From positions 38,526-102,525 of the forward strand of contig CAZXUC010000004.1 of the NCBI GenBank assembly GCA_964643795.1: a DNA stretch of 64,000 bases. Reading direction: 5' to 3'. A model generated the notes under the pieces. It was not told where the DNA came from. It searched no databases and worked only from the letters and a program-made list of their open reading frames with translations. The position numbers and the translations under genes are program-made. This stretch comes from an uncultured Halobacteriales archaeon (lineage in GTDB: Archaea; Thermoplasmatota; E2; JACPAO01; JAHFTW01). Below, one piece after another: positions 7,964 through 35,510 of the stretch (positions within the stretch are counted from its first letter, which is position 1; every line of letters starts with the position of its first letter).

Positions 7964-8039
7964 TGTGAGGCCACCTTTCGCACACCTTGGCGCCCACAAT
8001 CTCTGTGCAAGCGGCACGACCATCGGCCAATCGTGCAAT

Positions 8040-8330
8040 CAATGCCTGGCGCGTATGGGCCGCAGCCAACCGCTTGAGGTTAAGCTTTCCTTTAGCTGGT
8101 CCTGCGGGACCCGCAGATAGCTGAGTTGCTTGCCGCGCATAGTCTTCTCGTATGCGGCAAGTTGCCCGCACCAGCTGCGTCGTCCGGGTGGCGGTACGTG
8201 CCGGCGCCCCACAACACACCGATCACGACGCGGAATTCTGATTTCACGGCGGCGTCGCCCACGGCTCCGCCTTGCCGAGGGCGTTAGGAGGAGGGCCGCC
8301 GCGCGAAGCGGCATCGCGAACCCATGATGT
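8040..8330 (-). pseudogene. Decayed fragment homologous to the C-terminus of the type III Res protein
   Basis: Three minus frames give ...GKAEPW..., ...SYLRVPQDQLKES... and ...LNLKRLAAAHTRQ..., in the same order as Res ...GGKPWHYLLVPHDVVRESATLKGLAAAHTRQ (9730-9800). At least two frameshifts and no start. Confidence 0.4.
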
Positions 8331-8415
8331 GCTTGCCTCAAGCACACGGCGAGCCGGCGCGAAGTTCTCCGGTTTTTGGTGGATGCCGATTAGTGTTCCC
8401 CAGGCGCGGTGAATC

Positions 8416-8949
8416 TTAGGTCGCCCCGCACGCCTCGAGGTAAGCACCGAATTCCAGAGCCTTTTGCGTCGCCACTCGGATGTCCCGGATTCCCGTCAAC
8501 ACAAACGAACCAGTGGCATAGAGGAGAAACGTCGCCCCCTCCGTGCTCAGGTGAATCGCCGGGAATTGCTCGGGCTCGTACGAAATCGTGTACGGGATTT
8601 CCAACTGGGCGATGAATTCCAGGCTGCGCCGGAGCTTGACACGTCCAATGACCACCAGGTTCTGGACCACGGGCGTTCCGATTACCGCCTGGGAACCCCA
8701 ACTCGTCAGTTTGTCCTGGACCTGACCAAATCTAGCCTCGAATTCAGCCCGCGTTTTGGCACCGGGAGTGAGGACCTTTCCGCTTTGGTAGAACGCCGCG
8801 TAGAAGCCCGCCGGAGGCTAATGCGTTCCAAGCCAAGCGGACCGACCTTCGTCAAGCACACCGTGGTTGGCGAGGAGTACCCGAAGCCCCTCGAAGTCAA
8901 TTCCCGCAAGCGGGGCCATGGCCACGATGTTGACGGTGCGGAGATCCAT
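8416..8949 (-). pseudogene. TATA-box-binding-protein (TBP) paralogue, two repeats, interrupted by one in-frame TAG (8818-8820)
   Basis: Hand translation from ATG 8949 gives two segments: MDLRTVNIVAMAPLAGIDFEGL...LGTH*PPAGFYAAFYQSGKVLTPGAK, then ...VVQNLVVIGRVKL...ISYEPEQFPAIHL...LLYATGSFVLTGIRD... It aligns along the whole length of archaeal TBP (178 codons). Confidence 0.7.
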
Positions 8950-9416
8950 TAGACTGGCCTGCCACCAATTTTTTTTGAGGTTGGCTCAGTGATAAGAGAG
9001 GCAAGAATTTCGAAATCTGGTAACGAAATACCGCGAATTGCATGGCCGCGGAACGCCAACCCCCAAGCGCGGCCTTTAGGGACAAATGACAGGGAATCCA
9101 GGACGGGCTTGACAGGAGCTGGCGTTCCCCTCAGGATCACCCGGACGGGTACACTGAATGGATACCAGGTTGCGAACCCCGGCCGACGGGAAGTTGGGGC
9201 AGGCCCGCCAGTAGACTCGATGACGGCCGCGACGCCGCTGAAGGGCCCGAGTCTGGCCATCAGGTACACGACCGCTCGAGATCCGGGCCGGAAGGTCTCG
9301 GCGGCCCGTTCGGACTGAAAGCACCATTTACGCGCATCTAGCATGGACTCGTACGTAGTCCAGTCGGCGACAACGTAGAACCGAACGTTGCAATTGCCCG
9401 CGACATCGTAGGTCAA
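8949..9416 (-). CDS. PUA-like (EVE/ASCH-type) domain protein
   Basis: RFYVVADW...RPGSRAVVYLMARLGPFSGVAAVIES...WYPFSVPVRVIL...LSFV...AIRGISLPDFEILASLI follows the EVE-type pattern. TTG 9416 is the preferred start. Its TAA shares one nt with the TBP-like ATG (TAATG). Confidence 0.4.
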   Translation of the reverse strand: MTYDVAGNCNVRFYVVADWTTYESMLDARKWCFQSERAAETFRPGSRAVVYLMARLGPFSGVAAVIESTGGPAPTSRRPGFATWYPFSVPVRVILRGTPAPVKPVLDSLSFVPKGRAWGLAFRGHAIRGISLPDFEILASLITEPTSKKIGGRPV

Positions 9417-9503
9417 GTTGTGGCCTCTAGGCCCCGCCACACCGCACACCCATTTTGCTTCATCTCTGGAGGGACGACAGGAGGAAATGGGCGTATTCTT
9501 AAC

Positions 9504-9737
9504 GTGGCTCGAGGTCCCACGAGCGTGCCCTACGTGTACACCAGTCGTGATCAACGCTGGGTGCTCCACTCGCGTGACGTCCTGATGAAGGGCGGGCACA
9601 CATACCACTCGTACTACTTCTGCAAGGAGGGAAAAAAGCCAGCTAGCGGCAAGCCGACCGAGCTTCCTTCCGGAATGAAGGTCGGAGTAAACGTCCGAAC
9701 AGGGATGCCTTATCTGCAGCGCAAAAAGGCTAGCTGA
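9504..9737 (+). CDS. Small hypothetical protein
   Basis: ...WVLHSRDVLMKGGHTYHSYYFCKEGKKPASGKPTELPSGMKVGVNVRTGMPYLQRKK looks like a conserved small archaeal/bacterial protein type. GTG 9504 or ATG 9585 start. Confidence 0.35.
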   Translation: MARGPTSVPYVYTSRDQRWVLHSRDVLMKGGHTYHSYYFCKEGKKPASGKPTELPSGMKVGVNVRTGMPYLQRKKAS

Positions 9738-12381
9738 CTCGCATTTGCCTCGTGTGCGCGGCGGCTAGCCCCTTGAGCGTGGCACTCTCGCGTACGACGT
9801 CGTGTGGTACGAGCAGGTAGTGCCATGGCTTGCCGCCGTTCTTGCCCTCGAACTCGGTGGCGCGAGCGCACCATTCGAGGATGGCTTTGGTCTTCGCTTC
9901 AACGTCGGGGGCATCGAGTTCGTTGGCGGCCTTGGTCTCGCAAACGAACTTGGCCGTTTTCGTCTCGACGACGAAGTCGGGCACGTAGCCGCCTTCCTCG
10001 TAATAGACCGGGAAGTCCCGCTTCGACGGTCGGGTCCACTTCTCGACCTCGGGGTCCTTCTCGAGGATGATGGCGAAGACTCGCTCGGTGTCGGATTGGA
10101 ATTTCATCTCGTTGAAAAGGCACTTCGTGAAGCCGTTGAAGACGTAGCGCGTGATGGTGCGCTTGTCCTCGGGCGGGCTGCGTAGGTCACGGATGGGCTC
10201 GTTGACGCTCCGAGGCCAGATCTTCGGAGTCAGAGGGTTCATTCGTTCGGCTGGCTTGACTTCCCAACCCTGGACCCTTTGCACGACATGGCCTGGCCGT
10301 GTCATCTGGTCATGGATAGCATCCACGAGCTGACGGCGGTGGTAGCGCAGGACGTTGTCGACCTCGTCCGGCGTTTTGAGGTACGACCTGAGGTGGTCGA
10401 CCATCTGCTTGGCGAGCTTGTACAGGAGCCGGCGATCGCGACCGTAGTTGACGTCGTTGAAGTCCATCAGGCGGTACACCAGCAGGTCCTCGGGGCGGAC
10501 TGGCGTCAAGTTGGCCGACTGGAGGTGGATGGTGAAGGCCTTCTCGTCTTCGAGCTGCTGAATGAGGATTTCCTGCTTCACCGGCTTCACATTGATTCCG
10601 TTGGTGTCCAGGTCGAAGTCCTGGTACTCTACGGTCACTTCACCGTTGGGCTGCACGAGGATGTGAGGGACCTCGATTGTGAGAAACTCGCGAGCCTTCT
10701 GCACCTTTTGGATGACGAGCTCGATTTGCTTGGGGGTCACCGAAGGTGGCAAACGTTCCTTGGCTTCCTGGACGAGCTTCGCCCGGTTGTCCTCGTCGCT
10801 GAGGCCGGAGAGCATCGAAATGCCCGCCGTGCCATTCTCCAGGATGTCATTGACGGTGAGCGCGATGTCTTTCTCTTCCGGTTTGAAGGAGACCTGGGGA
10901 ATCTGCGTCGCGCCTGTGAGAACGTACGTCAACCGTGGCAATGCCTCGACCTTGACCTGCGTAGCGTCGGGGATGTCTTCGCCGATGTACACCTGGCGGA
11001 TGATGGAGCCCGTCTCGCGGGCGTACCGGACAATCTCGTCGAACTTGTCGTGCGCCACGATCGTTAGTCGGTCGACTTCGGCGACGCCGGTGCGTGTGCC
11101 ATAGGGCAGACGCAGGCCGCGGCCGATGCTTTGCTCCACGAGCGTCTTCGAGTCCGCGGCCTTCAGGGGGATGATTGTGTAGAGGTTTTTGACGTCCCAA
11201 CCTTCGGAGAGCATGTTGACATGCACGACCACCTCGATGGGGTTGTCGACACGTTCTACGGAGAGGAGCTTCTCGAGGTTCTCCGCGCCCTCAGCAGTGT
11301 CGAGGTTAGTGTGGATGACGAGGGTCTTGCCTGCGTACTTGCCATCGCAGAACTTCGCCGATTGCAGTTGTTCACCAAGCTGGTCGGCATGCGTGGTGTC
11401 GCGCGCGATGACGAGTACAAACGGTTTGACCAACGGCTTGCCTGTGCCGTGCGCGTACGCCTCGAGGGCGATCTTGGTATGCTCGTGGACCCGGAGACCG
11501 TCTTCCAGCTTCATGGCATCCATCTCGGCCACGGAGGATTCGCCGTAGTTCCGGCGCGTGGCGACGGCCGGCTCTTTGACGTAGCCATCTTTCATGGCGT
11601 TGGCGAGGAGATAGTGGTACACGATGTTCTGGAACTGGATTGCCGTCTTGCCCTCCATGACCTGGGGCGTTGCGGTCAACTCCAAGCCCAGAACGGGTCG
11701 AAGCTCGTTGATCGCGCGCAGGCCCGCGCTGGCGCGGTATCGATGCGACTCGTCCATCAGTAGAACGAGGTCGTCCAAGCCGCTGAGGTAGTCGAAATAA
11801 CTTTGGCCGATGTACTCCGAGAGGCGTTTGATGCGGGGCGCTTTCCCGCCGCGGACTTCGGAGTTGATTTTGCTGATGTTGAAGATGTTGATGTGGACGA
11901 CGTCTGTGTCGTCGCCGAGTTTCCGTTGTGCCCGGGCTTCGTTACGCACACCCCGGCCCGACTCGTAGTTGTCCCCCGTGATGATCTCCGGCGGGTTCGT
12001 CGCGAATTCGGCCAGGTTGGCTAACACATACTTGGGCATGTTTGGGGTAAAATCCGTGATGAGTTTGTTGTAGATGGTCAGGTTGGGGGCCAGAACAAAG
12101 AAGTGGCGGATTCCCCAGACCTTGTACAGATACGTGATGAAAGCACCCATCAGGCGCGTCTTTCCCACACCGGTCGCGATGTTGAAACAGAGGGAAGGGA
12201 AGTCACGTTCGAAGTCCTTGACAGTGGCGTATTTCCCGCGAATTGCTGCAAGTGCATCGGCGACGGGTTGTTCCTTGGTCAGCTCAATGCGTCCGCAGAT
12301 TTCTGCGAGGATGGCGAGACTTTCCCCAAGGGGGATTCGGAGGTCCATGCGCCTGCTGATGCTTTCGACTTGTGCGTCCAT
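9730..12381 (-). CDS. res: Type III restriction enzyme Res subunit (SF2 helicase + C-terminal PD-(D/E)xK nuclease)
   Basis: ATGVGKTRL (Walker A), LLMDESHRY (DEAH-like), LELTATP; C-terminal YVPDFVVE...CETK nuclease motif. Confidence 0.85.
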   Translation of the reverse strand: MDAQVESISRRMDLRIPLGESLAILAEICGRIELTKEQPVADALAAIRGKYATVKDFERDFPSLCFNIATGVGKTRLMGAFITYLYKVWGIRHFFVLAPNLTIYNKLITDFTPNMPKYVLANLAEFATNPPEIITGDNYESGRGVRNEARAQRKLGDDTDVVHINIFNISKINSEVRGGKAPRIKRLSEYIGQSYFDYLSGLDDLVLLMDESHRYRASAGLRAINELRPVLGLELTATPQVMEGKTAIQFQNIVYHYLLANAMKDGYVKEPAVATRRNYGESSVAEMDAMKLEDGLRVHEHTKIALEAYAHGTGKPLVKPFVLVIARDTTHADQLGEQLQSAKFCDGKYAGKTLVIHTNLDTAEGAENLEKLLSVERVDNPIEVVVHVNMLSEGWDVKNLYTIIPLKAADSKTLVEQSIGRGLRLPYGTRTGVAEVDRLTIVAHDKFDEIVRYARETGSIIRQVYIGEDIPDATQVKVEALPRLTYVLTGATQIPQVSFKPEEKDIALTVNDILENGTAGISMLSGLSDEDNRAKLVQEAKERLPPSVTPKQIELVIQKVQKAREFLTIEVPHILVQPNGEVTVEYQDFDLDTNGINVKPVKQEILIQQLEDEKAFTIHLQSANLTPVRPEDLLVYRLMDFNDVNYGRDRRLLYKLAKQMVDHLRSYLKTPDEVDNVLRYHRRQLVDAIHDQMTRPGHVVQRVQGWEVKPAERMNPLTPKIWPRSVNEPIRDLRSPPEDKRTITRYVFNGFTKCLFNEMKFQSDTERVFAIILEKDPEVEKWTRPSKRDFPVYYEEGGYVPDFVVETKTAKFVCETKAANELDAPDVEAKTKAILEWCARATEFEGKNGGKPWHYLLVPHDVVRESATLKGLAAAHTRQMRVS

Positions 12382-12384
12382 GGT

Positions 12385-14145
12385 TCACGGCTCCGAGTAG
12401 TTGAGCAGACTCACCGATTTTCGGCGTTCATCCTCCGTAATCGGTTTCTCCGGAGATTTTGCGGCCGGTGCGTCAGGAGCGTTTGGAAGGCTCTTGATTT
12501 CCAGGCTGTAATCGTCCTGGCCCCACTCGCAGCGGTGCAGAACGGTCTTGGGGATTTTCTTGACGACGAGGCGAGGGAAATCCGAGAGGCTCTTCGCAGT
12601 GAACGAGCCGCAACAGACGAGCAGACTCCGTTTCGGGCCAACTTGCTCGTTGAGCGTACGGAGCTGGTCGACGGTGAGCGTCTGCGTAGTAACGTAGAGG
12701 TAAGACTCGCCGGACGTTTTTCCGTGCTGCCAGTACACGGTGTCGCTTGGTTCGTACCGGTAGCCCTCGAGCTTGCAGACGGCCTCGGCTAGCATGGCGG
12801 GGTTGTAGTCCTTCGAGACAACCCAGTTGCCGAATTCATCTCGTTCGAGGAGCGAAGGCGCCAACTCGTAAAAGCGGAACCCCCCTCCCCCGGACCATGA
12901 AACGTTTTCCGTGATTCCGCCGTCGTCGGAACCATCGATAACTTGGTGGAGCCTGGGGAGGATGTGGGTTGTACAGTGTTCCCCAAGTTCCGCCATAATC
13001 CACCGGCGTCCCATTTTGTGCGCGACGGCGCCGGTGGTGCCGGAGCCGGCAAAGGAGTCGAGAACCCAATCGCCAGGGTTGGTCGCCAGCTCGAATACTC
13101 GCTTGATGAGGGCTTCGGGCTTCTTGCCCTTGGGGAACTCCACGCCGCCCTCGTTGTGAAGATTGTTGGACAAGATGTCGTCCCACAAGGTGGTCAGGGG
13201 CTCACCAGCAACATACTCCCCGTCAACCAGCTTGAGTTTGTCGGAGTAGAACAGAATGCGCTTGCCTCCGAGAAGATAGATGTCAGAATAATCCTGCCTC
13301 GCGAGCTTGAAAATTCGTTTCGGTGAGGCCTCAGACATGTCGATAAGCGTCTTCGCCTCGGCACTGACAGCGTCGTAGTCAGGACGGGCCAATTGTATGA
13401 CGCTCTTCGCGTTGTCGAGTACGAATTGGTCCATGAGTTCCGGCTTTTCCTTGACTAGTTTCCTGGCTTCCTTTTCGGGCAATTTTTGCGCTTCGGCGAA
13501 CGCTTTGTTGAGCGTGGTGAACTTCCACGCCTCGTGGTTCTCCCCAACGTTGAGGATGAACTGCCCGTACCGAGTGTCGCGCTCTCGCCCCGTGAACACC
13601 CGGCCGGGTTTCCAGAGGCCCTTGTTCTTGGCGTAGATCAGGACGTAGTTGGTCGTGTTCACGCACCCTGGATTGATCGACTTGTGGCCGGTGGCCGAGC
13701 CCTGTTTGAACGTGGCCACGGCAACGCGATTCGAGCGTCCGAGTGTTTCGTCCAGTAGGACAATCAGATACCCGAGCTCGTTGTCGTCAATGTGCACGAA
13801 AAGCGTGCCGTCGTTCGCAAGCAGGCGTTTGAGAATCTCCAGGCGGTCGCGCATCAGCGAGAGCCAGAGCGAGTGCTCGATCCCATCGTCGTAGTGTTCC
13901 ATCGCTTGCTGCGTATTGAACGGCGGGTCGATGTAGATGCACTTGATCCGGCCTGTGAACTCCTGTTCAAGGGCCTTCAGTGCCAGCAGGTTGTCGCCGT
14001 GGATGAGGCGATTGTCGAAGATGTCGTTGTCCGTGACTTTCGCCTTGGCGTGGTATGATTTCCCCTTGTCCTCGAGGAGGATGCGGGGTTCGAGGCGGGG
14101 GCGGTTCTCCTTGCCGACCCATGTGAGTTCGAGTCTGGTTGTCAT
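12385..14145 (-). CDS. mod: Type III R-M Mod DNA methyltransferase (beta-class amino-MTase)
   Basis: CIYIDPPFNT (motif IV) upstream of LDSFAGSGTTG (motif I); located immediately upstream of res. Confidence 0.85.
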   Translation of the reverse strand: MTTRLELTWVGKENRPRLEPRILLEDKGKSYHAKAKVTDNDIFDNRLIHGDNLLALKALEQEFTGRIKCIYIDPPFNTQQAMEHYDDGIEHSLWLSLMRDRLEILKRLLANDGTLFVHIDDNELGYLIVLLDETLGRSNRVAVATFKQGSATGHKSINPGCVNTTNYVLIYAKNKGLWKPGRVFTGRERDTRYGQFILNVGENHEAWKFTTLNKAFAEAQKLPEKEARKLVKEKPELMDQFVLDNAKSVIQLARPDYDAVSAEAKTLIDMSEASPKRIFKLARQDYSDIYLLGGKRILFYSDKLKLVDGEYVAGEPLTTLWDDILSNNLHNEGGVEFPKGKKPEALIKRVFELATNPGDWVLDSFAGSGTTGAVAHKMGRRWIMAELGEHCTTHILPRLHQVIDGSDDGGITENVSWSGGGGFRFYELAPSLLERDEFGNWVVSKDYNPAMLAEAVCKLEGYRYEPSDTVYWQHGKTSGESYLYVTTQTLTVDQLRTLNEQVGPKRSLLVCCGSFTAKSLSDFPRLVVKKIPKTVLHRCEWGQDDYSLEIKSLPNAPDAPAAKSPEKPITEDERRKSVSLLNYSEP

Positions 14146-16319
14146 GGTTGCACCGGGTTCGCGACAGCTTCGATGGCTTCCGATTGGGCTGGCGTCTGGT
14201 CGAAATGCACGATGGCGGTCGGCGCGAAGAGTCGTTCGAAAATGGCGAGGAACTCGTTCGTGTTACCCGAAACGCCATCAGGAACTGTCTGCGCAAGCGC
14301 CAGAACGGCCTCCTTGGTCGTTACCGTGGAGCGGAATTTGTCGGCACCTTCCGTCTTCTTGTCGGCGGCCACAGGGAATCCGTAGTAATCCTCGATGCAG
14401 CCCTTGTCCCAGACAATAATGCCCTCGACACGGAGGTCTCGCAACAATTCGAGTTTTTGCGCCCGAAGCGTCGCGTTTGTCGCCAAGGTATCGACGAGGG
14501 CGCGGTTGCGACCCAACTTTCCCTCCATCCAATCCATCGTTGCCTGGTCCGTCGCATCGATGGCTTGGCCCGCGTTGGCCTTGGTGATAATTCCCCGCAG
14601 TCGGGCGCCGGCCTCGCGCCAGGTGGTATTGGCCTGCTCAGCGTCAGCCTGGTACTCAGGACAAAGCGCCGCCGCCTGGGCGTGCAGCGCTGCTTGTCGA
14701 GCCTTCAGCGGTGAATCGGCGGCGAGAGGCAGCTCGCCAAACCCATGAACGATGCAATCCAAATCCGCGACCACCATGGTCTTGATTTTGAAATGCGAAA
14801 AGAAGTCTGCGAACCTGCCGAAGTTCCCCTTGCCTCCGACCTTTACCAACCGAACCCGCCCCTCTTCGAAATCCCAATCCGGGTTCAGCGCCAAAGCGAT
14901 ATGCTGGAGTGCCGTTACGTCCGTGTCCCCTTCTACCAGAACTACGGCGTCGGCAAAGAAGGCAGCATTGTGGTTTTCGTAACAGAGTACCTGGAACTGC
15001 GTCTTGAGCGGGAGTTTTTTCTGAAAATCAATGGACACCAGGTCGCTGAAGGGCCGCCCGTTGTTCGGATGTTCCTTGACCAACTTCGAGAAGGCGTTGG
15101 TGCGCGAGGCCGAGAAGAAGAGCGGCGAATGTGTGGTAACAATGACCTGCATGCCGCTCGACACGGCATGAAGCGCCTCGAAGAGTAATTTCTGGGCAGT
15201 CGGATGCAGGAAAATCTCGGGCTCTTCGAACATGAGGATGTGCTTGCCTGGTGCCGCATTTGGATTCCATTCGGGCCGCTTTGCCAATTCACTGTAGGCC
15301 CGCAGAAGTGCGAAAATCACAGCCCGTTTGAGTCCGTCGCCCTTAGTTTCGACCGGGCCAGGCACCGCGTCATCGAACAGGATTTGCCCGCGTTGCAGAA
15401 TCAGTTTTGGTTCGGGTGGAGGGATGCTCAGTTTTACAGAAACGGTGGGGAAGCTTTCTTGCAGATGAATCTGAACCTCTTTTTCCAAGTCCCTGACCTG
15501 TTGCAAGCGCTTGTCTTCCGTCTTGCCCGAGGCATCAGTCTTCACGTTCAGCATGGCATCAAGTTTCGCCAACTCGGATTTGAACGTCGCAATCTCGCCG
15601 CTGATTGAGTTCAGAAGTAGTCCAATCAGCTTTCCGAAGGCCGAGCTACCGGCGGTCCCCATGTCGCTTGAAACATCGCGGACAGCCGGTACGAAAATCA
15701 CGTCCGGAAACAGCGCCTTAACGCTAGCGTCGATTCCAGTTGGAAGCGGCAGGTCATCGCGGTCCTGGAATTCGCCCTCTCCAAACGAAGCGACGTGGCC
15801 GTCGAAAACCTCGCGGAAGTCCTTCTGAGCCTTCGGAGGCGGGTTCTTGGCGGCAATGGCGGCCTTGAGATCGGGGTAGGCTTGCTCAACTGACGTTTTG
15901 AGGTCCGCGCCCTTCTTGCCCGCTACAACTTCATCAAAGGTCGCGGTTCGCCAGTTCACGTTCTTTGGTTCAGAGCCGGTCCTCGTGAGCTTGGCTTTCT
16001 GGCCGATGGCGGCCGTGTATGTTAGCTTGAACACGTTGGCTTTGATTGCGCTCTTGAGCCTTTCCCGGTGTTCCTCGTCGGAAACCGCGACCAAATCCTT
16101 GTCCGTGATGGTGGTTGTAACGGCAATGATGATAGGTTCCTTGGAATCGTAGTAGTCAGAGTCCGAAGGCGTTCTGGTTCCCAAGAACGTCTGCATTGCT
16201 TGGAGCACGGAGGATTTGCCCGCATTGTTTTCGCCGATAATGCAGTTGAAATGCGAGAGGCGGAGCGTGACGTCCTTCAGTGCGCGGAAATTCTGGATTC
16301 GTACGGACTCGATTTGCAA
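14142..16319 (-). CDS. OLD-family ATPase-Toprim nuclease
   Basis: MQIESVRIQNFRAL...IIGENNAGKSS (AAA15 head/Walker A) and AFFADAVVLVEGDTDV (Toprim). TTG start abuts the SNF2 stop; its stop overlaps the mod ATG. Confidence 0.8.
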   Translation of the reverse strand: MQIESVRIQNFRALKDVTLRLSHFNCIIGENNAGKSSVLQAMQTFLGTRTPSDSDYYDSKEPIIIAVTTTITDKDLVAVSDEEHRERLKSAIKANVFKLTYTAAIGQKAKLTRTGSEPKNVNWRTATFDEVVAGKKGADLKTSVEQAYPDLKAAIAAKNPPPKAQKDFREVFDGHVASFGEGEFQDRDDLPLPTGIDASVKALFPDVIFVPAVRDVSSDMGTAGSSAFGKLIGLLLNSISGEIATFKSELAKLDAMLNVKTDASGKTEDKRLQQVRDLEKEVQIHLQESFPTVSVKLSIPPPEPKLILQRGQILFDDAVPGPVETKGDGLKRAVIFALLRAYSELAKRPEWNPNAAPGKHILMFEEPEIFLHPTAQKLLFEALHAVSSGMQVIVTTHSPLFFSASRTNAFSKLVKEHPNNGRPFSDLVSIDFQKKLPLKTQFQVLCYENHNAAFFADAVVLVEGDTDVTALQHIALALNPDWDFEEGRVRLVKVGGKGNFGRFADFFSHFKIKTMVVADLDCIVHGFGELPLAADSPLKARQAALHAQAAALCPEYQADAEQANTTWREAGARLRGIITKANAGQAIDATDQATMDWMEGKLGRNRALVDTLATNATLRAQKLELLRDLRVEGIIVWDKGCIEDYYGFPVAADKKTEGADKFRSTVTTKEAVLALAQTVPDGVSGNTNEFLAIFERLFAPTAIVHFDQTPAQSEAIEAVANPVQP

Positions 16320-19300
16320 CTACATCACACTCCACTGAATCGTAAACAAGTTCTCCACCGTCGCTTCCTTGGTCATCTTGAGGCGCATGGCCTCGATGAA
16401 GGTCCCGGTCTCCGCGCGGATGGCGTCCAGGGCCTCGAAGTAGGCTTGTCTGGCCTTACGTTGGCGGTCCAAGAGGTTCGCCTCCTTCTGCTTGAGTTCA
16501 ACCTTGCGCTGGAAGTCCGTTTCGCGGCGCATCTGGCGCACGATGTCATCCAGAAGGGCGTCAATCTCTTCCTCGGTCTTCTTGGCGGAGGTCTTGCGGT
16601 CCTCGGACCACTCCTCAAGGCGCCCTTGCTCTTCCTCGAAGAACTTGCGGTTCGTTTCCATGACGGCTGTCACCTGGGCTTCGACGGCGAGCTGGGCGTT
16701 CATGCCGAGCCTGGTTGCGATCGGCTCTGGAATCGTGGCCGGGGTTACGCGGGGTGAAGGAAGTTGGAACAACTTGTCCGCTGTCTCGGCATCGACTGGG
16801 TCCCCTTTCTCGGTAAGGGCGCTGAGAAGGATGTGCTCCTCTGCCCCGAAGGATTTGACATGGAGTTTCGTTGCCGTGAGCCATCCTGATTGGCCTTTGA
16901 GTTTCTCAAGGACTGTGATTTTTCCTTGGTGCCCCGTGAGTTTGAACTCGACCTTGGCCACGCCGAGCCCCATCGCCTTGGCCGTTTGCAGGACGTACTC
17001 ACCAAGGGGATGTGAGATGCGGTACAGGATGTCGTCGCCCTCCGCTTCGAGTTGTCCGCTCTTGCTGCGCTGGATCAACTGGTATGGCCCCGCGCGGATG
17101 TTGGCCGCGGGGCTCTTGTTGAGACGGAACTCGTGTGTGGAGTCCGTGAATTTGGCTGCGTCGGCCAGCACGTACTTCGTGGTTCGCCAGAACATGTCCT
17201 CGATGCGGCCCAACCGTTGCTGCGCTTCTGCGAAGGAGTTGCGGAACCGCTGTTGGACTTCCGTGTCGAAGTTCTCCAACAGTTTCTGGCGCACGTCCAC
17301 GAAGCGCCGCTTGATGGATTCCGCCATCTCCTCTTGGAGACCCGCGAACTCGCGTTCGATATCGCGACGGTTGCGGCACCTTTGGTAGATTTCTAGGACC
17401 TTCTTCTCGAAGTCAATTCCCGATTCAACGGTCCCCAGCACCTCGTCGCTTGACCCAAAAACGCCCTTAAACAAGTGGAATTTCTCAGTAAGTAGTTCGA
17501 GCACCCGGCGATCGGCTTCGTTCTCGCTGTTGAGGAAGTTCACCACGGCAACATCGTACAGTTGGCCGTAGCGGTGACACCGTCCAATGCGTTGCTCGAT
17601 GCGCTGAGGGTTCCATGGTAAGTCGTAGTTGATGATGAGGGAACAGAATTGGAGGTTCACGCCCTCGCCGCCGGCTTCTGTGGCAATCATGATTGCGGCG
17701 CTGTCCCGGAAATGCTCGATGAGCGCCGTCCGCTGGTCGATATTCCGGCTGCCGCTTGAACGCCCAAGGGGCTCGTTGACCTTCAGCCAGGCATCGTAGA
17801 TCTTGCGCGACTCCGGGTCGTTGGGCTGCCCGTTGAACAGGACAACTTCACCCGCATAGCCATTGGATTCGAGGTACTTCTTGAGGTAATCCTGGGTCCG
17901 GCGGGACTCCGTGAAGACCAGCGCCTTGCGGGCGGCTCCAAGTTTTGCCATCTCTTCGAATCCCTTGGACAATCCAGTGATGAGTGCCTGGGATTTCGAG
18001 TCCACCGTGATGCCGCGGGCGACCCTGATGAATTCGGATAGCTCGCCAATCTCTGCCTTCAACTTCACCGGGTCGACGGGTTGTTCCTCGACAGGAGCGT
18101 CGTCTTCGAATTCTTCCGCTTCATCCTCGTCAATGACCTCGTCCTCCAGCAGGGACTCGATGAGGTTCTTGTCAGTCTCCTTACCGTCCAGCTTGCCTTG
18201 AAGGCGACCGCGAATCTTCTCCAACGTGGATGCCAAAGCGGAACTGGACGAAGCCAGAATCTTGCGGAGCATCAGGACCATGAGTTGGTACTGACCGCGA
18301 GGAAGCGAATAGGTATCGCCTCGTTGCAGGAACTTGCTGACCTCCTCGTGGAGCCAGTTCTCCGGCTGCGACGGGTCGAACGGGACCGTGATCGGGAACC
18401 GCTTCGTGTACGGAATGTATTCCTTGACGTCGCGCCGAAGAGTCCGCCACAGCAGCGGTTTCAGGCGATGCCGGAGTTGCTCGAAGTCGGCGTCGGGCCC
18501 TCCGAATTGCGCCTTGAAGGATTCTCGGTCGCCAAAGGCGTGTTCGTCAACAAACGTTGCCAGGGAATGAAGTTCGTCCAGCCGGTTCTGGAGCGGGGTA
18601 GCCGTGAGCAGAATCTTGCGGCACGATTTGAGGGATTCGCGCAGGTTCGTTGCTGCCTGCGTCTTGGCGTTGCGAAGCCGGTGTGCTTCGTCGATGACGA
18701 CCAGGTCCCACGGGACCTTTGCCAAGTCGTCCTTGCACTTGCTGGCATAGAGGTACGACACAATGACGACGCTCGCGTCTTGCTGGAACGGGTTGCCGTA
18801 ACCCTGTTTCCGAAGTGTTTGGTATTCTTTGCCGTCGAGGACGATTCCGGGGAGGCTGAACTTTCCGCTTAGCTCCAGCTGCCACTGCTTGCGAATGGAT
18901 GCCGGGCAGATGACAAGGAGACGTCGCTTGCGTTCAGCCCAAAATTGGCAAAGAACCAGGCCGGCCTCAATCGTCTTCCCGAGACCAACTTCGTCGGCAA
19001 GGATGACCCCCTTTGAGAGTGGTGAGCGAAGTGCGAACACGCCGGCTTCGACCTGGTGCGGCTGAAGATCCACGCGGGCGTCAAAGAGCGATTGTGAGAC
19101 GCGACCAACGCCGCCTGCAGGAGCCATGCGAGTCACCTCGTGCGCAAAGAGGCGTGCGTGGTATGCCGAGACACCGTGGATTGCCGGCGGCACATTCCCG
19201 GAGACAGACTGAAGAGTGGGAGTGTAGCGCTCCGCCGGGGCAGCTTCGGTCCGAAGGGCGACGCCTTCGGGCTGGTTCTGTTCGGCTCTGATTGCGCGCG

Positions 19301-19445
19301 CGGACTCACGGGACTTGTTTGGGCCGGATGGGGGCGGAGCGGACGGAGTTTCGGGCGCAGCGCGACGTGTAGTCTTGTTCTTGGCTAGGCCGCCGCGGCC
19401 GCGAATAAACTCATCCAACGAGTCCCTGATACCCCGCCCCGCCAT
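16320..19445 (-). CDS. SNF2-family helicase with long C-terminal coiled-coil region
   Basis: PHQVEAG...ILADEVGLGKTIEAG, VVIDEAHRLRN, LLTATPLQNR and GGEGVNLQ...WNPQRIEQRIGRCHRYGQ. Confidence 0.85.
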   Translation of the reverse strand: MAGRGIRDSLDEFIRGRGGLAKNKTTRRAAPETPSAPPPSGPNKSRESARAIRAEQNQPEGVALRTEAAPAERYTPTLQSVSGNVPPAIHGVSAYHARLFAHEVTRMAPAGGVGRVSQSLFDARVDLQPHQVEAGVFALRSPLSKGVILADEVGLGKTIEAGLVLCQFWAERKRRLLVICPASIRKQWQLELSGKFSLPGIVLDGKEYQTLRKQGYGNPFQQDASVVIVSYLYASKCKDDLAKVPWDLVVIDEAHRLRNAKTQAATNLRESLKSCRKILLTATPLQNRLDELHSLATFVDEHAFGDRESFKAQFGGPDADFEQLRHRLKPLLWRTLRRDVKEYIPYTKRFPITVPFDPSQPENWLHEEVSKFLQRGDTYSLPRGQYQLMVLMLRKILASSSSALASTLEKIRGRLQGKLDGKETDKNLIESLLEDEVIDEDEAEEFEDDAPVEEQPVDPVKLKAEIGELSEFIRVARGITVDSKSQALITGLSKGFEEMAKLGAARKALVFTESRRTQDYLKKYLESNGYAGEVVLFNGQPNDPESRKIYDAWLKVNEPLGRSSGSRNIDQRTALIEHFRDSAAIMIATEAGGEGVNLQFCSLIINYDLPWNPQRIEQRIGRCHRYGQLYDVAVVNFLNSENEADRRVLELLTEKFHLFKGVFGSSDEVLGTVESGIDFEKKVLEIYQRCRNRRDIEREFAGLQEEMAESIKRRFVDVRQKLLENFDTEVQQRFRNSFAEAQQRLGRIEDMFWRTTKYVLADAAKFTDSTHEFRLNKSPAANIRAGPYQLIQRSKSGQLEAEGDDILYRISHPLGEYVLQTAKAMGLGVAKVEFKLTGHQGKITVLEKLKGQSGWLTATKLHVKSFGAEEHILLSALTEKGDPVDAETADKLFQLPSPRVTPATIPEPIATRLGMNAQLAVEAQVTAVMETNRKFFEEEQGRLEEWSEDRKTSAKKTEEEIDALLDDIVRQMRRETDFQRKVELKQKEANLLDRQRKARQAYFEALDAIRAETGTFIEAMRLKMTKEATVENLFTIQWSVM

Positions 19446-19448
19446 GCG

Positions 19449-20549
19449 TTAATCCTTCCTTGAAGCGACAATCTTGGCAAGTGGCTTCGTCGGCGCTTCG
19501 ATAGCAAGGTTCTGGTTTCCGTCCTCGAATTCAAGGTCAAGCACCTTGTCGACGCGCTGCTTGAAGCGCTTTACGTGATCGTCACCCTTTCCGTACGCGT
19601 CCGCAGCCTTAACCAGATGAACGCCGACCTCCTCGAATCGCTCGTAGAACTTCTCGAAGCTGTATTGGACGTCGGCAAGTCCTTCCTGCAGCTTCTTGGC
19701 ATTCTGTAGCAAATCCACATTATGCACGGCAATCAGAATAACCTGCAGGAATGCGTAGAATGTGTTCGGGCTCACGGGAATGACCTTGCGGGCGTGCGCA
19801 TAGTCAATGAGGCCGTTCTCATCGTTCAATCCGTTCCGAGCCGCGATGGTCTCGTAGTAGACCGCCTCGGACGGAATGAACATCAAGGCGAAATCTGAGG
19901 TGCCCTTTTCGGGCTTGATGTACTTCGTTGCAATGCTGTCAATCTGAATTTTCACGGCCGCCTCGAAAGCCTTCCAAGCGCGACGTTTGCTTTCATCGGT
20001 ATCGGCTGTCAAGTAACGTTCGTAGTCGTCACGGGGGAACTTGGCATCAATCGGGAAAATGACTCCCTTGAACTCGACCACGGCATCGACGGTTTCCCGC
20101 CCGTCAATCGAGAACTGAGGTTTCCAGATGCCCGCGGGGAGCACGCGGCTCAACATTTCCTCCAAGATTTCTTCGCCGTAGTTGCCCCGAAGCTTGGGTG
20201 ATTGCAAGAGCGATTTCAGGTCCTCGGCGAGCTTGCTCGCTCCTTGCTGTTGGTTGACGAGTTGGCCGATCGTGGTGCCGAGCCCCGTCATGGCCTTGTG
20301 CATCTCAAGGGAATTTTTCTGAAGGGCCGCATTGGACTTCTCAACGTCTTGATGTGTGGACGCAACCGATTGCTGGATTGAGGATTGGAACGCGATGAGC
20401 CGAGTGTCCACGGCCAAGGCAATCTCGTTCTGAAGCGCCTTGCCGTCAGGTCCCTTGCGACGAAACAGGAGGGCCATCGCCACGAGCAGCAGGCCAATTG
20501 AATTCACGATCAGCAACGCGGTGACGGTGTCCATCGCTATCCACCCCAC
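19449..20549 (-). CDS. rmuC: RmuC-family protein (N-terminal TM/coiled coil, C-terminal REase-like domain)
   Basis: N-terminal TM helix, coiled coil, then ...GTSDFALMFIPSEAVYYETI...VIPVSPNTFYAFLQ, typical of RmuC. Confidence 0.75.
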   Translation of the reverse strand: MGWIAMDTVTALLIVNSIGLLLVAMALLFRRKGPDGKALQNEIALAVDTRLIAFQSSIQQSVASTHQDVEKSNAALQKNSLEMHKAMTGLGTTIGQLVNQQQGASKLAEDLKSLLQSPKLRGNYGEEILEEMLSRVLPAGIWKPQFSIDGRETVDAVVEFKGVIFPIDAKFPRDDYERYLTADTDESKRRAWKAFEAAVKIQIDSIATKYIKPEKGTSDFALMFIPSEAVYYETIAARNGLNDENGLIDYAHARKVIPVSPNTFYAFLQVILIAVHNVDLLQNAKKLQEGLADVQYSFEKFYERFEEVGVHLVKAADAYGKGDDHVKRFKQRVDKVLDLEFEDGNQNLAIEAPTKPLAKIVASRKD

Positions 20550-20684
20550 GGAGCGTAGGGGGACCGGCGCTTGAGGAACCGGCCACCCAAGTCTTCCCCG
20601 TACTCTCGTAGGAGACCCACCAAGATGACTTCAACCGTCCGGCTGGGCGTCGGCCGATGGACCCGGTTCCAAGAATCCCGCGCT

Positions 20685-23600
20685 TCACCCAAGCCGCACC
20701 ATCCCTCCACCGAGCGGCAGGTGCACGACGGCGTGGGCCTTGCCTCCCGTTAGACGCACGTAACACGCCAATTGTCCTGCGTGTTCGAGGGCTTTCTCGC
20801 CCCACCCGGCCTCGACGAAGTCGGCGCTCTTGTGGTCGACAACGAGGGTGCCTTGCGCCGAGTCAAGCACGAGGTCGATTGTGCCCGCCCACATTCCCCC
20901 CTCGTCGCGGGGCCCGGCGACGGGGACCTCGGCGCTCCAGCGGGCACCGGGCAAGTTGGTTTCGACCCACGCTTCGAGCCGGTCCCCGGCCCGGACTAGC
21001 ATGTGGGGTTCAAGTTCGCCTTGTCGGCCCCACCGGGCAAGGATCGCAGCGGCATGCGATTCCTTTGTGGCTTGGGGTAATCCCCGTAACGCGGGAAGGC
21101 TTGCCAAGTACGCGTGGACGGCCTGACCCAAGGACTGCCAATCGTCCGTCTTGACGCGGGGGAATGGGTGGTCGCCGGGAAGCGCCTCGGCACGTGTTGA
21201 GATCTCTCCGCTGGTTGGGACCTTGCTGGGGCTCGCAAAACGGTCCGGGAAGGAAGTGTGACCGCGGCTGGCCTCGAACCATTGCGTGGCCGTCGATGAG
21301 GGTTCACTCTCAGTTGGTGTTTGATTGCACGTGATGGCTGTGTAGGTCGTGTTCAGAAGACTGGATGGCCCAATGTTTGGCAAGACGGTGTTGACGGCGG
21401 GAAGCAAATCGAGGGCGTTGCTTCCACCTTCAGCGAGGATGAGCGTTGTTTTGGCGCGTGTAAAGCCGACATACAGCAGTCTCTGGGTCTCTTCGTCATG
21501 GTCCCGCTGAATGGTTTGGCCCTCCGGACTCTGGCGTGCCGCGTCCTGAACGCCTGAGCCGTCTGCGTTGAGGCCTCCCATGTACGTCCGTCCGAACGGA
21601 TACGGCCAGTACCGGATCTGGCGACCTTCGAGAGGCTTGCCCTGGGCGGCGTTTCCGCCGTCAACATGAATGGTGAAGGGGTGCGGGTCAGGTGCCTGGC
21701 CGTCCTGCAGCAGGATGACACAAGGCCACTCCAGGCCTTTGGCAGCCCAGAGCGTGAGGATTCGGATGGCCGGCACGCTCGCCGGCACGGGGAGCAGGTC
21801 TTGCTTCTTGGCGGCGAGGTTCTCGAACCAGTAGATGAGTCCGGTGAGGGTCGCGGCCTTCCCCTGTTGTTCGGATTCATCCTCGTATTTCCTGGCCATC
21901 AAGAGGAGCTCATCGAGATTGGCCGCCCGGCGCATCGGGTCCCCCCACGCGGCGATTAGGTCGGCCAGATGGAGCGCCTGGATGACGGCACCTACAACCC
22001 CGTTGGGGGGCGTGGTCTTGGCGTCGATCTCGCGCACCGCCGCTACGGTTGCGCCTTGAATTTGTCCACCAGGATTGGCAAGTGCCTCGTGGAACCAGGC
22101 GGGCGTGTCGTTTGCATCATCTAGGTGCCGAAGAGTCGCGGCGGCCAGGGCGTCATCGGTGTCGGCCACGAGGCGCAACCCGGCGAGCACCATGATGCAC
22201 TCGCGCGTGTTGAAGAGCCCAGATGTTTGGACGAGGCACGGGATGTTGAGGCGTTGGAGGTCCTTGGCTACATCGCGTGCGTCGTCGTTCTTGCGCACGA
22301 GGATGGCGATGTCGCTCGGTGGCATCGTCTGGATGAGCGTCTGCATCTGAGCCAAGAATGCGGCCCGGCGCGTTGGGCGATTCTTGCCTTCAAGTTGCCA
22401 GCGCTCAATGCGGGCGGGACCTTTGTGGTGAGCCGCTAACCTTGTGGAATGTCCGAAGATGGGCTCGAAGATGCGGTTGACGCATTCGACGAGGCCCTCC
22501 TGACTGCGGTAGTTTTTGTTTAGAGTTCGCCGCCTATTTTCGGGAATCGTGCCTAGTACGTCCTGCATGAGCCGCGCGTCGGTTCCTCGGAAACCGAAGA
22601 TGGCTTGCTTGGCGTCGCCGACCCAGAGTGATTCCTTGGCAATCGCAGCCAATTCCTGGAAGATGGCGAGTTGGATGGGATTGGTGTCCTGGAACTCGTC
22701 AACCACGACGAGGTCAAGGTCCAGGTCGCTGCGGACGGCGGGCGTGCGCAACAATTCCAAAAGACGTTCTTCGAGATCCGTAAAGTCGACGAGACCGCGG
22801 CTCGTCTTGTAGACGCGATACCTACCCTGCAATTCTAAGACGCGCTCTACAAGGCAGAGAGTGAACGATCGTAGGTCAGCGTGCAGGAGACGATGCACGT
22901 TGGCTCGGCGGGCCAAGCCGGTAAGGACGGCGGTGTCGTTCTCGCTTTTCTTGGACCAAGCCAATTTGGCGACCTTGCCCCACGCCTGCCATTGTGGGTG
23001 GGCTGTCCGTGCGAAATCTTCGAGTTCCTCCAAGGCGTCGGCAGTTTTCTTGGTGGCGTCCCCATTGCCGCGCACGCGTTGCGCCATGTCGCGACATTGA
23101 ACGTAAAAGTCTGGAAAATCCGGCAGGTCGACGCTGTTCCCGGCGCTCATGATTTGGATAAGGCGCTCCGTGCCGGCGACCATGCTAGCGCGAAACTCGT
23201 CGTCGCCGAGCGCATTGGACCGCTTCTCGTCGAGGATTTCCAGCAGAAGCATCTGAGGCTCGATTTCCCCAAGACGACGAGCGAGACGGTCCAGCTCCCG
23301 CAGGCCTTCGGAAGGCATCTCAGCTAAGATGCGCCGCAAGTGGCGTTCCTGGGCTTTCTCTTCCAGGGGCTCTAGTTGAGGACTGATGCCGAGGTGAACG
23401 GCGTAGCGGGATAGGAGGCGATGGCCAACGCTGTGAACCGTGCCGATCAGCGCGATGCGAACATTGGCAGCCAGTTGCAGCCGTTTGGCGGGAGTGAGGG
23501 CAGGGTCGCCTGGTTCGGGATGGAGAAGGCGTTGCTGGATGCGGTCCTGCAACTCGGCGGCGGCCTTCCTGGTAAACGTGGTAGCAAGAATAGCGTCAGG

Positions 23601-26326: not shown

Positions 26327-26330
26327 GCCG

Positions 26331-26537
26331 TCAGAAGTCGTCGTCTGAGTTTTCACCACCATCGTCCACCTCCTGATCGCCAGATTCGCTGTAGGACTCC
26401 TCGCCAGCGTCGCCCCAGGCTTGTGCACCAGACGCGTCCTTGTGTGCTCCGTCTTCATGGCGGCTATCGCCGAAAAGCCAGTGCCAGGCCATGGCGCCGA
26501 AGAGAAAATCGAACAGCCCACCGCGACGGCCATTCAT
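26331..26537 (-). CDS. 68-aa protein with aromatic head and strongly acidic tail ending in DDDF
   Basis: MNGRRGGLFDFLFGAMAWHWLFGD...GEESYSESGDQEVDDGGENSDDDF. Its ATG overlaps the Csa3-like stop (ATGA 26534-26537). Confidence 0.45.
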   Translation of the reverse strand: MNGRRGGLFDFLFGAMAWHWLFGDSRHEDGAHKDASGAQAWGDAGEESYSESGDQEVDDGGENSDDDF

Positions 26538-27193: not shown

Positions 27194-27234
27194 CCATATA
27201 ACGTTCGCTTCGGGTTGGTGACGAAACGTTCAAT
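27194..27234. promoter_or_regulatory. Divergent promoter/operator candidate between the Csa3-like and CBASS operons
   Basis: Two AACGTT palindromes (27200-27205 and 27225-27230) are embedded in ATAACGTTCG ... CGAAACGTTCAAT. A TATA-like ttatat on the minus strand lies about 25-30 nt upstream of ATG 27172. Confidence 0.2.
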
Positions 27235-34283: not shown

Positions 34284-34399
34284 CCGGATATAGGTGCCCG
34301 TGGAAACCCCGTGATGGCCTTCAGGACCGTTTTCGAGCCGGTTGGAGCGTCGCCAAAGTCGGCGGCAACCGCTTATCTAAATGGACTGGTGGCCACCCC

Positions 34400-35224: not shown

Positions 35225-35510
35225 CCGCCGGTTTGGACGAATTCGGTGTACGGCATCAAGCCTAACTGGCGCCGCCTCTACCCTTTGTCCGCCCCCAAGG
35301 CCGTACGAACCACCGCTACATGGATCCCGCGTGGGTCCGTGTTTTAGGCAGAACGTATGCGATGGCGCCGGAACCCACTACAAGGTCGCATGCTGCGCAG
35401 GTACGGCTCAATGACTAAGTCACGGAATCCCTTGGCCCGGCTCGTCCGACAGGGTCAAGCCCTGCACCACACGGTTCGCCCTGGAGTATGTGAAAGACTG
35501 GCCCTGAAGT

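Follow-up and report, generated by a model that had tools for sequence, protein, structure and literature searches.

In type III restriction–modification (R-M) systems, the Mod subunit hemimethylates asymmetric sites, and ATP-switched sliding of the Res subunit together with communication between inverted sites has been established for EcoP15I. For the subgroup that carries an extra helicase-like ATPase, site-specific cutting alone has been demonstrated, with Eco86II. Here we examine a defence locus on the minus strand of a 64,000-nt stretch of contig CAZXUC010000004.1 from an uncultured archaeon (the whole stretch is called the window, and all coordinates are window positions), in which genes for RmuC, SNF2, OLD, Mod and Res stand one behind another. 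The locus is probably a composite, made up of a core of SNF2, Mod and Res, an autonomous OLD gene carried as cargo, and lineage-specific RmuC and UvrD/PD-(D/E)XK neighbours.

The closest described relatives of the core come from Murray et al. 2021 (PMC8259958), who reported a type III group (Eco86II, BspHIV) with an additional, highly conserved gene 5' of mod, encoding a superfamily 2 (SF2) helicase-like ATPase. This ATPase lacks a nuclease motif, lies near Mod and Res in more than 500 genomes, is not needed for methylation and went undetected in the partially purified active Eco86II enzyme, which cuts ~25 bp from GAGCC; its role was given as unknown. Table 4 of the same paper also lists EcoF9792I of E. 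coli F9792. The second relevant precedent is the embedding of defence genes in Hma, BREX, DISARM and type I R-M systems (Payne et al., bioRxiv 10.1101/2024.01.29.577857), where the embedded genes include HEC-04 (an ATPase-Toprim fusion) and HEC-05/06 (GmrSD). OLD-ABC/Toprim modules have been recruited as auxiliary effectors of BREX, BR and Hma-type systems (PMC12839542; bioRxiv 2024.01.29.577857), and Abi/HEPN genes are known from inside R-M operons (PMC3710099).

A six-frame list of open reading frames (ORFs) and a base-by-base reading of the junctions bear out the five genes that a first-pass annotation of the window had proposed, together with their coordinates, their gaps of 0–3 nt or ATGA overlap, and their packing as one operon. 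In the direction of transcription, RmuC (19449-20534; longest ORF from GTG 20549) ends in a TAA at 19451-19449, which is followed by CGC and the ATG of SNF2 at 19445 (SNF2, 16320-19445). The SNF2 stop codon TAG (16322-16320) abuts the TTG start of OLD at 16319 with a gap of 0 nt (OLD, 14142-16319), OLD and Mod overlap by ATGA at 14145-14142 (OLD stop TGA, Mod start ATG; Mod, 12385-14145), and the Mod TGA (12387-12385) is followed by ACC and the Res ATG at 12381 (Res, 9730-12381). Such tight spacing is common in operons and is by itself no proof of one machine. For RmuC, translation more likely begins at the in-frame ATG 20534, which gives a hydrophobic N-terminus (MDTVTALLIV...), than at GTG 20549, while the TTG start of OLD is supported by a Pfam match that begins at residue 1. 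SNF2 and OLD share one reading frame, parted by the single TAG at 16320-16322. We saw no fused SNF2-OLD homologue, and the alignment of OLD covers its N-terminus from the first residue, so that read-through or a decayed fusion was rejected and the shared frame is probably a coincidence.

Pfam, PADLOC and NCBIfam profile searches of the window proteins agree with the earlier domain labels and with a role in defence, and the catalytic motifs are all intact. Res (883 aa), an SF2 helicase-like ATPase with a C-terminal PD-(D/E)XK endonuclease, matches ResIII (71 bits) and RE_endonuc in Pfam and REase_III in PADLOC (PDLC03648, 628 bits), its PADLOC matches being limited to REase_III and type IV models. 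It carries the motifs GVGKT71, DESH210, QSIGRGLR417 and PD801...ETK and is remotely related to EcoP15I Res (4ZCF_C, E=4e-5). Mod (586 aa) matches the Pfam family N6_N4_Mtase (131 bits, PF01555 type) and MTase_III in PADLOC (PDLC03636, 609 bits), with motif IV (DPPF73) before motif I (FAGSG365), the order of beta-class N6/N4 DNA methyltransferases. SNF2 is a DrmD/RapA-like double-stranded DNA translocase with matches to SNF2-rel_dom (148 bits) and Helicase_C. Its best PADLOC model is DrmD (PDLC02619, 683 bits), followed at a distance by HmaA (178 bits), and its score against the NCBIfam model DISARM_DrmD_b (686.9 bits, covering model positions 22-658 of 868) lies below the curated cutoff of 950. 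The motifs GLGKT, DEAH and QRIGRCHRYGQ (motif VI) are intact, and Pfam detects no nuclease domain. In an AlphaFold2 model (predicted local distance difference test score 79), the SNF2 C-terminus consists of a helical/coiled-coil part and a small alpha/beta domain, for which a Foldseek search against the PDB returned nothing at E<0.09, the matches being coiled-coil noise.

The SNF2 family comprises more than 8000 matches, typically of ~960 aa and ~50% identity. The window protein has an N-terminus of ~90 aa that is disordered, and its closest relatives after P0122 (P0123-P0133 and L087 10001-14002, 55-59% identity) are ~1330 aa long. Their N-terminal extension of ~290 aa has no Pfam match. We considered it as a fused RmuC that might serve as a Rosetta stone, and discarded the idea after neither Pfam nor tblastn gave a signal.

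Comparison with the published type III group rests on a chain of similarities. The locus in E. coli F9792 reads helix-turn-helix (HTH) – SNF2-related – Mod – Res; its SNF2 gene has ~70% DNA identity to an SNF2 gene on a Salmonella plasmid, and the Salmonella SNF2 has 45% protein identity to the window SNF2. Because of this chain, the window SNF2 appears to belong to the same family as the published ATPase, and would thus represent the "extra helicase-like ATPase" of the Eco86II-like subgroup, by an indirect link that runs via E. coli F9792 and not via Eco86II itself. The two share the order ATPase-Mod-Res (with OLD intercalated in the window), an ATPase with SF2 motifs, without a nuclease motif and non-homologous to Res, a beta-class Mod, and a Res with Walker A/B motifs and a C-terminal PD-(D/E)XK domain. 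The characterised members have larger subunits (Mod ~1040 and Res ~1126 aa) and produce N4-methylcytosine, whereas the window represents a shorter, divergent branch in an archaeal host, with OLD between ATPase and Mod and RmuC upstream; cargo slots are not described in PMC8259958. Canonical type III enzymes (EcoP15I/EcoP1I) likewise combine Mod and Res, the beta-class motif order and an SF2 ATPase plus PD-(D/E)XK architecture in Res. The window differs from them in its obligatory third gene, SNF2, and in a Res of marginal similarity (the E=4e-5 match given above).

The linkage of SNF2 to Mod and Res was followed from both ends. We used tblastn to analyse an SNF2-anchored set of 80 metagenomic loci, and inspected in addition the neighbourhoods of four SNF2 relatives, all of which read SNF2...N6_N4 methyltransferase...ResIII with differing intervening genes. 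Among the 64 SNF2-anchored loci having at least 3 kb downstream, 57 contained a same-strand Mod. With at least 9 kb downstream, a same-strand Mod was present in 40 of 42 loci and a tblastn-detectable Res in 23 of 42; the remaining loci carry long, divergent Mod/Res genes recognised as type III by Pfam/PADLOC. From the other end, five Res-anchored plasmid loci were inspected (Salmonella, Roseomonas, Paracoccus, Sphingopyxis and Aeromonas) and all carry SNF2-Mod-Res, as do two E. coli chromosomal loci reached from SNF2 (APEC E16002 and F9792) and Ketogulonicigenium, the last judged from match coordinates alone, so that the triad is complete in 8/8 plasmid or E. coli loci. The same order is found in L172, L133, L113, L157 and L181, and the Mod proteins of 29 SNF2-linked loci are 38-70% identical to that of the window.

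Since SNF2- and Res-anchored loci keep all three genes together, we regard SNF2-Mod-Res as a conserved unit, in which SNF2 is genetically obligatory for this Mod/Res family: it is present in essentially every locus examined. The link between SNF2 and Mod/Res implied by the first-pass annotation is thereby confirmed. Its statement that Mod and Res alone would be a canonical type III system did not hold, as SNF2 accompanies this Mod/Res family in all inspected loci and the family is not a self-sufficient two-gene system. Many bacterial triads (L170, L180, L179, L089, L178) have in front of them a small HTH gene (RefSeq MAD1) or a WYL/BrxR regulator overlapping the start of SNF2; the window has no such small HTH, WYL or BrxR gene before SNF2.

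As to mechanism, the core belongs with the type III subgroup that has a helicase-like ATPase 5' of mod. Judging from its family, Mod is predicted to mark one strand of a short asymmetric site and to form the usual type III complex with Res, which would use ATP as a switch to DNA sliding and cut near an unmodified site once two inversely oriented sites communicate. SNF2, an intact double-stranded DNA translocase, is most likely an accessory in vivo, given that the Eco86II ATPase is dispensable for methylation and for cutting in vitro; it may remodel or clear protein-covered invader DNA, or gate restriction.

The junctions of this core vary in content. Within a close set of 29 loci whose Mod and Res align full-length to those of the window, SNF2 and Mod are separated by 30 to 7743 nt, and Mod and Res by 24 to 1952 nt. 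Same-strand ORFs occupy the first junction (slot 1, SNF2|Mod) in 24/29 loci and the second (slot 2, Mod|Res) in 8/29, and slot 1 is empty in L113, L118, L133 and L157. The cargo ORFs cluster into many small families and include AIPR, SLFN/AlbA_2-HATPase, several ABC ATPases, DUF2130, HerA, RhuM and DUF3800, as well as OLD (including a second OLD type), Mrr, YhcG, ImmA/IrrE-HTH, an S8 protease with SIR2, and GmrSD. In the same position, IS256 with Abi, AAA with DUF4276, or Abi with AIPR are found in annotated plasmids and genomes. The loci nearest to the window by Mod (62-70% identity) have OLD (L125, L015), GmrSD (L136), a 1050-aa ABC ATPase (L141) or other genes in slot 1, and since the content differs among such close relatives, cargo is exchanged over short evolutionary distances. 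The SNF2|Mod and Mod|Res junctions thus act as cargo slots for stand-alone defence genes.

The window OLD has the marks of embedded cargo sensu Payne et al.: it lies on the same strand between core genes, has homologues outside such loci, and its slot is variable or empty in sister loci. As in the systems surveyed there, autonomous same-strand defence genes sit between core genes of a methylation-based helicase system, and the cargo classes common to both are ABC ATPases with or without Toprim, GmrSD, HEPN and Abi. The window differs from the surveys (Payne et al.; PMC12839542) in that its host system is an SNF2–type III triad, which is unlisted there, and in its class-1-like OLD of 725 aa, which is not HEC-04. 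In the literature, we found no published description of cargo slots in an SNF2–type III triad. We also noted ORFs of 269-283 aa directly after SNF2, often overlapping it and without a Pfam match, in five loci (L086 13099-13926; L129 10097-10936; L130 6465-7292; L132 8025-8834; L165 6323-7174). A common family across the five is unsupported, similarity being detectable for the L130/L132 pair alone, and these ORFs are small cargo genes without relationship to one another, or else members of one hypervariable family.

The OLD protein itself is an ABC-ATPase/Toprim nuclease (Pfam AAA_15 and OLD-like_TOPRIM) that matches PADLOC Old (PDLC02358) with 306 bits, against 141 for GajA. Its Walker A/B, H-loop and Toprim E/DxD motifs are intact, the invariant residues are present in an alignment of homologues, and the closest solved structure is the class 1 OLD 6P74. 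Like the class 1 OLDs (P2 Old, Thermus scotoductus OLD 6P74, E. coli YbjD), it is a single-chain ABC-ATPase plus Toprim protein without an obligatory partner; it differs from them in being larger, with a C-terminal extension conserved within its family, in lying inside an R-M operon, and in that part of its family pairs with DUF2130. In an OLD-anchored set of 80 loci from GTDB species representatives, SNF2/Mod/Res neighbours are absent from 76, and the four loci with close SNF2, Mod or Res relatives beside OLD are all from Planctomycetota (L011, L015, L021, L051). The nearest relatives of the window OLD, P0002 (62%) and P0004 (44%), lie in non-R-M contexts. The family has no conserved partner, with the caveat that 9/80 pair with DUF2130.

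In a neighbour-joining tree, the embedded OLDs are polyphyletic, with at least four separate positions: the window OLD groups with P0002 and P0003, that of L125 with the solitary L001, and that of L051 with L021. This polyphyly argues that the window OLD was captured rather than co-inherited. The OLDs of L015 and L011 are 82-90% identical to those of other phyla (L010, L040, L044, L060), and protein identity of this degree across phyla points to very recent inter-phylum transfer. Hosts of the OLDs at this level of identity are Planctomycetota, Chloroflexota/Anaerolineae, Usitatibacteraceae and unclassified metagenome-assembled genomes, and the OLDs of L010 and L060 sit beside Eco57I/MmeI-type methylases. 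From these sequence comparisons, the gene appears to be very mobile and repeatedly caught in methylation-based operons. It would thus be a horizontally mobile, class-1-like nuclease captured into the SNF2|Mod slot, most likely a second-line effector, abortive or backup, that works independently of the R-M core and is simply expressed together with it.

Alternatively, SNF2-OLD-Mod-Res could be a four-gene subtype in which OLD is a coupled back-up effector, acting for example when the core is inhibited or stalled, and RmuC is incidental. The same order in L125, L015 and L011, another OLD type in L137, and split OLD-like pairs (AAA_21 with DUF4276) embedded in L088 and in the Aeromonas plasmid would fit such a subtype, as would reports that BREX, BR and Hma systems have pervasively recruited OLD-ABC/Toprim modules (PMC12839542; bioRxiv 2024.01.29.577857). 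We nevertheless judge it unlikely, as captures from separate OLD lineages fit autonomous function equally well, the OLD family is mostly solitary or found beside DUF2130 or Eco57I-type methyltransferases, and neither a fusion nor a co-evolution signal was seen.

DUF2130 (PF09903, PD-(D/E)XK superfamily) directly adjoins the ~720-aa OLD family in 9/80 GTDB loci. The loci noted for DUF2130 are L001, L007, L021, L027, L031, L038, L055, L073, L079 and L081-083, and also L115, L124 and L135. DUF2130 adjoins the closest relative of the window OLD as well, and occurs too as cargo in or before SNF2-Mod-Res loci. DUF2130-OLD may be an undescribed two-gene module; no such link was found in the literature.

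RmuC, the fifth gene, is a member of the RmuC-family PD-(D/E)XK proteins (PF02646, 176 bits) with an N-terminal hydrophobic helix and a coiled coil. Among ~88 loci examined, just one besides the window, L086, has RmuC next to the SNF2 system. L086 is also the locus with the most similar SNF2 (63% identity), and its RmuC is 65% identical to that of the window. In L086, a fused UvrD/PD-(D/E)XK gene stands between RmuC and SNF2, and Mod and Res belong to a different branch. Other RmuC relatives at 50-65% identity sit among housekeeping genes (peptidase, RsmE, PPIase and similar). A relationship of RmuC to DUF2130 was also considered and dropped, the BLASTP match being not significant (E=0.86).

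These contexts bear on an integrated five-protein machine, in which the type III core, SNF2, OLD and RmuC would work on the same target. The 0–3 nt junctions with their ATGA overlap, the intact catalytic motifs, the lack of a T-run at the four junctions and the fact that no named system fits could all be read in its favour. We consider it very unlikely, given that RmuC lies by SNF2 in just one other of the ~88 loci and has relatives among housekeeping genes, and that the OLD slot elsewhere holds unrelated genes or none, with the embedded OLDs polyphyletic. The first-pass annotation had proposed an ~11-kb functional unit in which a second translocase and two extra nucleases supplement a type III core. 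Of this, the SNF2 link stands, while OLD falls away by its variable slot and polyphyly and RmuC by its occurrence in one other locus; put differently, of the three genes added to the type III core, conservation beside type III R-M was found for SNF2 and not for OLD or RmuC.

Co-directional packing extends beyond RmuC to eight genes, up to 27172, with a single sizeable gap of ~150 nt (20535-20684). Upstream of this gap, and also on the minus strand, lie a UvrD-type superfamily 1 helicase gene of AddA/GajB-like character (20685-23696), a gene for a large PD-(D/E)XK (AddB-like) nuclease protein (23693-26533; PDDEXK_1, 89 bits) and, first in the array, a regulator gene with HFX_2341_N and winged-HTH domains (26534-27172). 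The helicase (~1003 aa) matches UvrD-helicase (157 bits), UvrD_C and PADLOC GajB (122 bits), has the N-terminal Walker A sequence MTVTLYQAGAGSGKT, and scores under every NCBIfam AddA/UvrD cutoff; its ATG overlaps the stop of the preceding PD-(D/E)XK gene as ATGA, an instance of translational coupling. The PD-(D/E)XK protein has 946 aa by longest ORF, in which case the regulator TGA abuts its ATG; an independent gene call starts it later (889 aa). Regulator, PD-(D/E)XK protein and helicase (20685-27172) are translationally coupled and pass no AddA/AddB/UvrD equivalog cutoff. The regulator matches HFX_2341_N, HTH_20 and HVO_A0114 in Pfam, and its domain family flanks L086 and L081 as well. These three genes (20685-27172) may form a separate AddAB-like defence module. 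The fused L086 gene is analogous and non-orthologous to the window pair, the UvrD genes of the two loci sharing 24% identity.

A further possibility is that the R-M system was inserted beside ordinary DNA-repair genes of the host, namely RmuC and perhaps also the UvrD/PD-(D/E)XK pair, which would then have no role in defence. The housekeeping neighbourhoods of the RmuC relatives (50-65% identity, among peptidase, RsmE and PPIase genes) speak for this, as does the AddAB-like order and size of the helicase and nuclease pair. Against it stand the position of these genes within an island bounded by an integrase and tRNA-Met and shared with GmrSD, SMODS, nSTAND3 and Mrr, the 3-nt RmuC-SNF2 junction, the packing of RmuC and UvrD/PD-(D/E)XK against SNF2 in L086, and the helicase scores below the AddA/UvrD equivalog cutoffs. 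On balance we regard it as a doubtful, if serious, alternative, and prefer to see RmuC and the UvrD-like/PD-(D/E)XK pair as presumptive lineage-specific 5' additions to the composite.

Several observations weigh against the composite interpretation. The 0–3 nt gaps and the ATGA overlap are equally expected of a single complex, and the differences in GC content at third codon positions are small (OLD 0.69, RmuC 0.71, Mod 0.76, Res 0.80). L125, L015 and L011 likewise show SNF2-OLD-Mod(-Res), as does L137 with a different OLD, and OLD/ABC-ATPase-type genes are the commonest cargo class; this recurrent order and this frequency make a specific functional fit between an OLD-type nuclease and the core conceivable. 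Genes of PD-(D/E)XK type lie upstream of SNF2 in L086, L125 (PDDEXK_1-RNase_H_2) and L135 (DUF2130), and since they recur 5' of SNF2, an upstream accessory position for them is conceivable, a weak possibility that hints at a recurring theme rather than chance. Lastly, ORF-based censuses on metagenomic contigs are approximate. In a bolder reading, the SNF2|Mod slot would be a functional "effector socket", with SNF2 as a shared sensor or motor that hands over to, or licenses, OLD, AIPR, ABC-ATPase/Toprim, GmrSD, HerA or SIR2, and with the upstream PD-(D/E)XK genes (RmuC, DUF2130, PDDEXK-RNaseH) in a second socket. We think this quite improbable; were it true, the window would hold a genuine multi-effector system in an archaeon.

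The searches of PADLOC and NCBIfam returned no named system matching all five genes, as had been claimed at first pass. SNF2-Mod-Res, however, is a subgroup already reported in PMC8259958. The resemblance to DISARM or helicase-methylase-ATPase systems that had also been proposed failed on the defining genes. Class 1 DISARM (DrmD + DrmMI + DrmABC, with DrmA helicase and DrmB DUF1998 as defined in bioRxiv 2021.12.28.474362) shares with the window a DrmD-like SNF2 beside an adenine/amino-methyltransferase marking asymmetric sites, and one could imagine a DISARM/Hma-like system defined by this pair, with Res in place of DrmABC or HmaC, on the strength of the SNF2 scores to PADLOC DrmD (683 bits), DISARM_DrmD_b (687) and HmaA (178). 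This is extremely improbable: the array contains no DrmA, DrmB or DrmC, SNF2 stays below the DrmD_b cutoff of 950, Mod is of the PF01555 type and not a pfam13659 DrmMI, and Res matches REase_III and type IV models only. Hma was rejected in its own right on the secondary rank of the HmaA match (178 against 683 for DrmD), on the restriction of the Res matches to REase_III and type IV models, and on the absence of HmaB among the top Mod matches.

Further systems were set aside in the same way. BR/MANTIS (Gao_RL), which combines a DUF499 AAA+ ATPase (MtsA) with a co-regulator, a methyltransferase and a helicase-nuclease (PMC12839542; bioRxiv 2026.09.23.753747), was rejected for want of a DUF499 gene in the array. 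MADS is, like the window locus, a methylation-based multi-gene defence, and RefSeq labels as MAD1 ("mads1") the HTH gene that precedes SNF2 in E. coli loci of this family. We rejected it since SNF2, Mod and Res gave no matches, OLD scored 54.8 bits against MAD3 (cutoff 420) and the window lacks a MAD1-type HTH gene. The kinase, specificity subunit, bipartite type I-like motif and mandatory MAD6-8 are features of MADS (Maestri et al.; bioRxiv 2023.03.30.534895), and of its components the kinase, the specificity subunit and MAD6-8 are all missing from the window. Gabija (GajA OLD + GajB UvrD) has its two ingredients, an OLD nuclease and a UvrD-type helicase, both represented in the array. It was excluded by their non-adjacency (RmuC and SNF2 lie between), by the higher score of OLD to Old (306) than to GajA (141), and by a helicase of ~1000 aa that is paired with an AddB-like protein. 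Shield is reported to employ an RmuC-family nuclease domain in defence (ShdA, an RmuC-domain effector); the window RmuC differs from it in belonging to a short, widespread RmuC family whose genes lie in housekeeping surroundings.

What is new here is an archaeal, OLD-carrying and RmuC-preceded version of a kind of type III system that is already known and mechanistically unexplained, assembled by embedding, itself a known process. Because the SNF2 motor belongs to it, a large Mod/Res family is not plain two-gene type III, and the triad is spread over E. coli, Salmonella, Klebsiella, Burkholderia, Planctomycetota and an archaeon. Annotation tools break such a locus into "RM type III", an orphan "DrmD" and "Old". 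The role of the extra ATPase has been a question since 2021, and it is this question, together with the architecture of the slots, that gives the present comparison its value: compact cargo-free loci (L133, L113, L157 and Paracoccus pCP157_04) offer natural constructs for addressing that role, and through the two slots "guilt by embedding" gains another host system. The slots also supply uncharacterised candidates, namely the 269-283-aa post-SNF2 ORFs, a 527-aa ORF of Sphingopyxis and the DUF2130-OLD pairs. In the window, probable bacterial-type defence cargo, including a very mobile OLD, lies inside an archaeal island.

The host's archaeal nature is reflected in the scores of AlaRS (1072 bits to the archaeal equivalog, cutoff 745) and RecJ (413 bits to RecJ_archaeal, cutoff 360); the window proteome is not acidic. 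A scan for sigma-70 promoters and intrinsic terminators gave counts at chance level and was discarded, and because the host is archaeal it was replaced by scans for TATA-like elements and oligo-T tracts. In the 120 nt before each of nine gene starts there is a single A/T-only hexamer, against a background of 0.34 per kb per strand in the window. This hexamer, TTATAT on the minus strand at 27196-27201, precedes the regulator start by 29 nt and is a candidate archaeal TATA box; the same hexamer scan found no TATA-like element in the ~150-nt gap before RmuC (20535-20684). Four runs of at least five T occur on the minus strand between 8.8 and 27.4 kb, two of them within 100 nt after the Res stop. 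These two (T5 9727-9723 and T6 9637-9632), near which a hairpin with a T-run behind it was also noted, are candidate archaeal terminators. No terminator-like T-run is found at the four junctions of the five genes, the sole internal T5 lying inside SNF2. The sequence signals suggest that the array is probably one long transcription unit, with a promoter at ~27.2 kb and an end just after Res.

The array lies in an archaeal defence island of ~31 kb (4.6-35.5 kb; 4609-35584), which is edged by a tyrosine integrase gene (4609-5742) and by tRNA-Met (35509-35584), with housekeeping genes beyond. It further contains GmrSD (PADLOC HEC-06/Orf5-like, 5888-8038), a SMODS nucleotidyltransferase (28224-29153), a QueC-like gene (29678-30310), an nSTAND3 NTPase (31977-34283) and an Mrr-like gene (34085-35224). 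A tRNA-Met-derived att repeat delimiting the island was looked for and none was found. Between Res and GmrSD lies a 219-aa ORF (8949-9608) without a family match, and at ~8200-8460 (L182 20776-21030) an 84-aa ORF has a TBP (PF00352) match in a public gene call. Outside the island, a 67-nt direct repeat (205-271 and 926-992, 99% identical) recurs at a distance of 721 nt.

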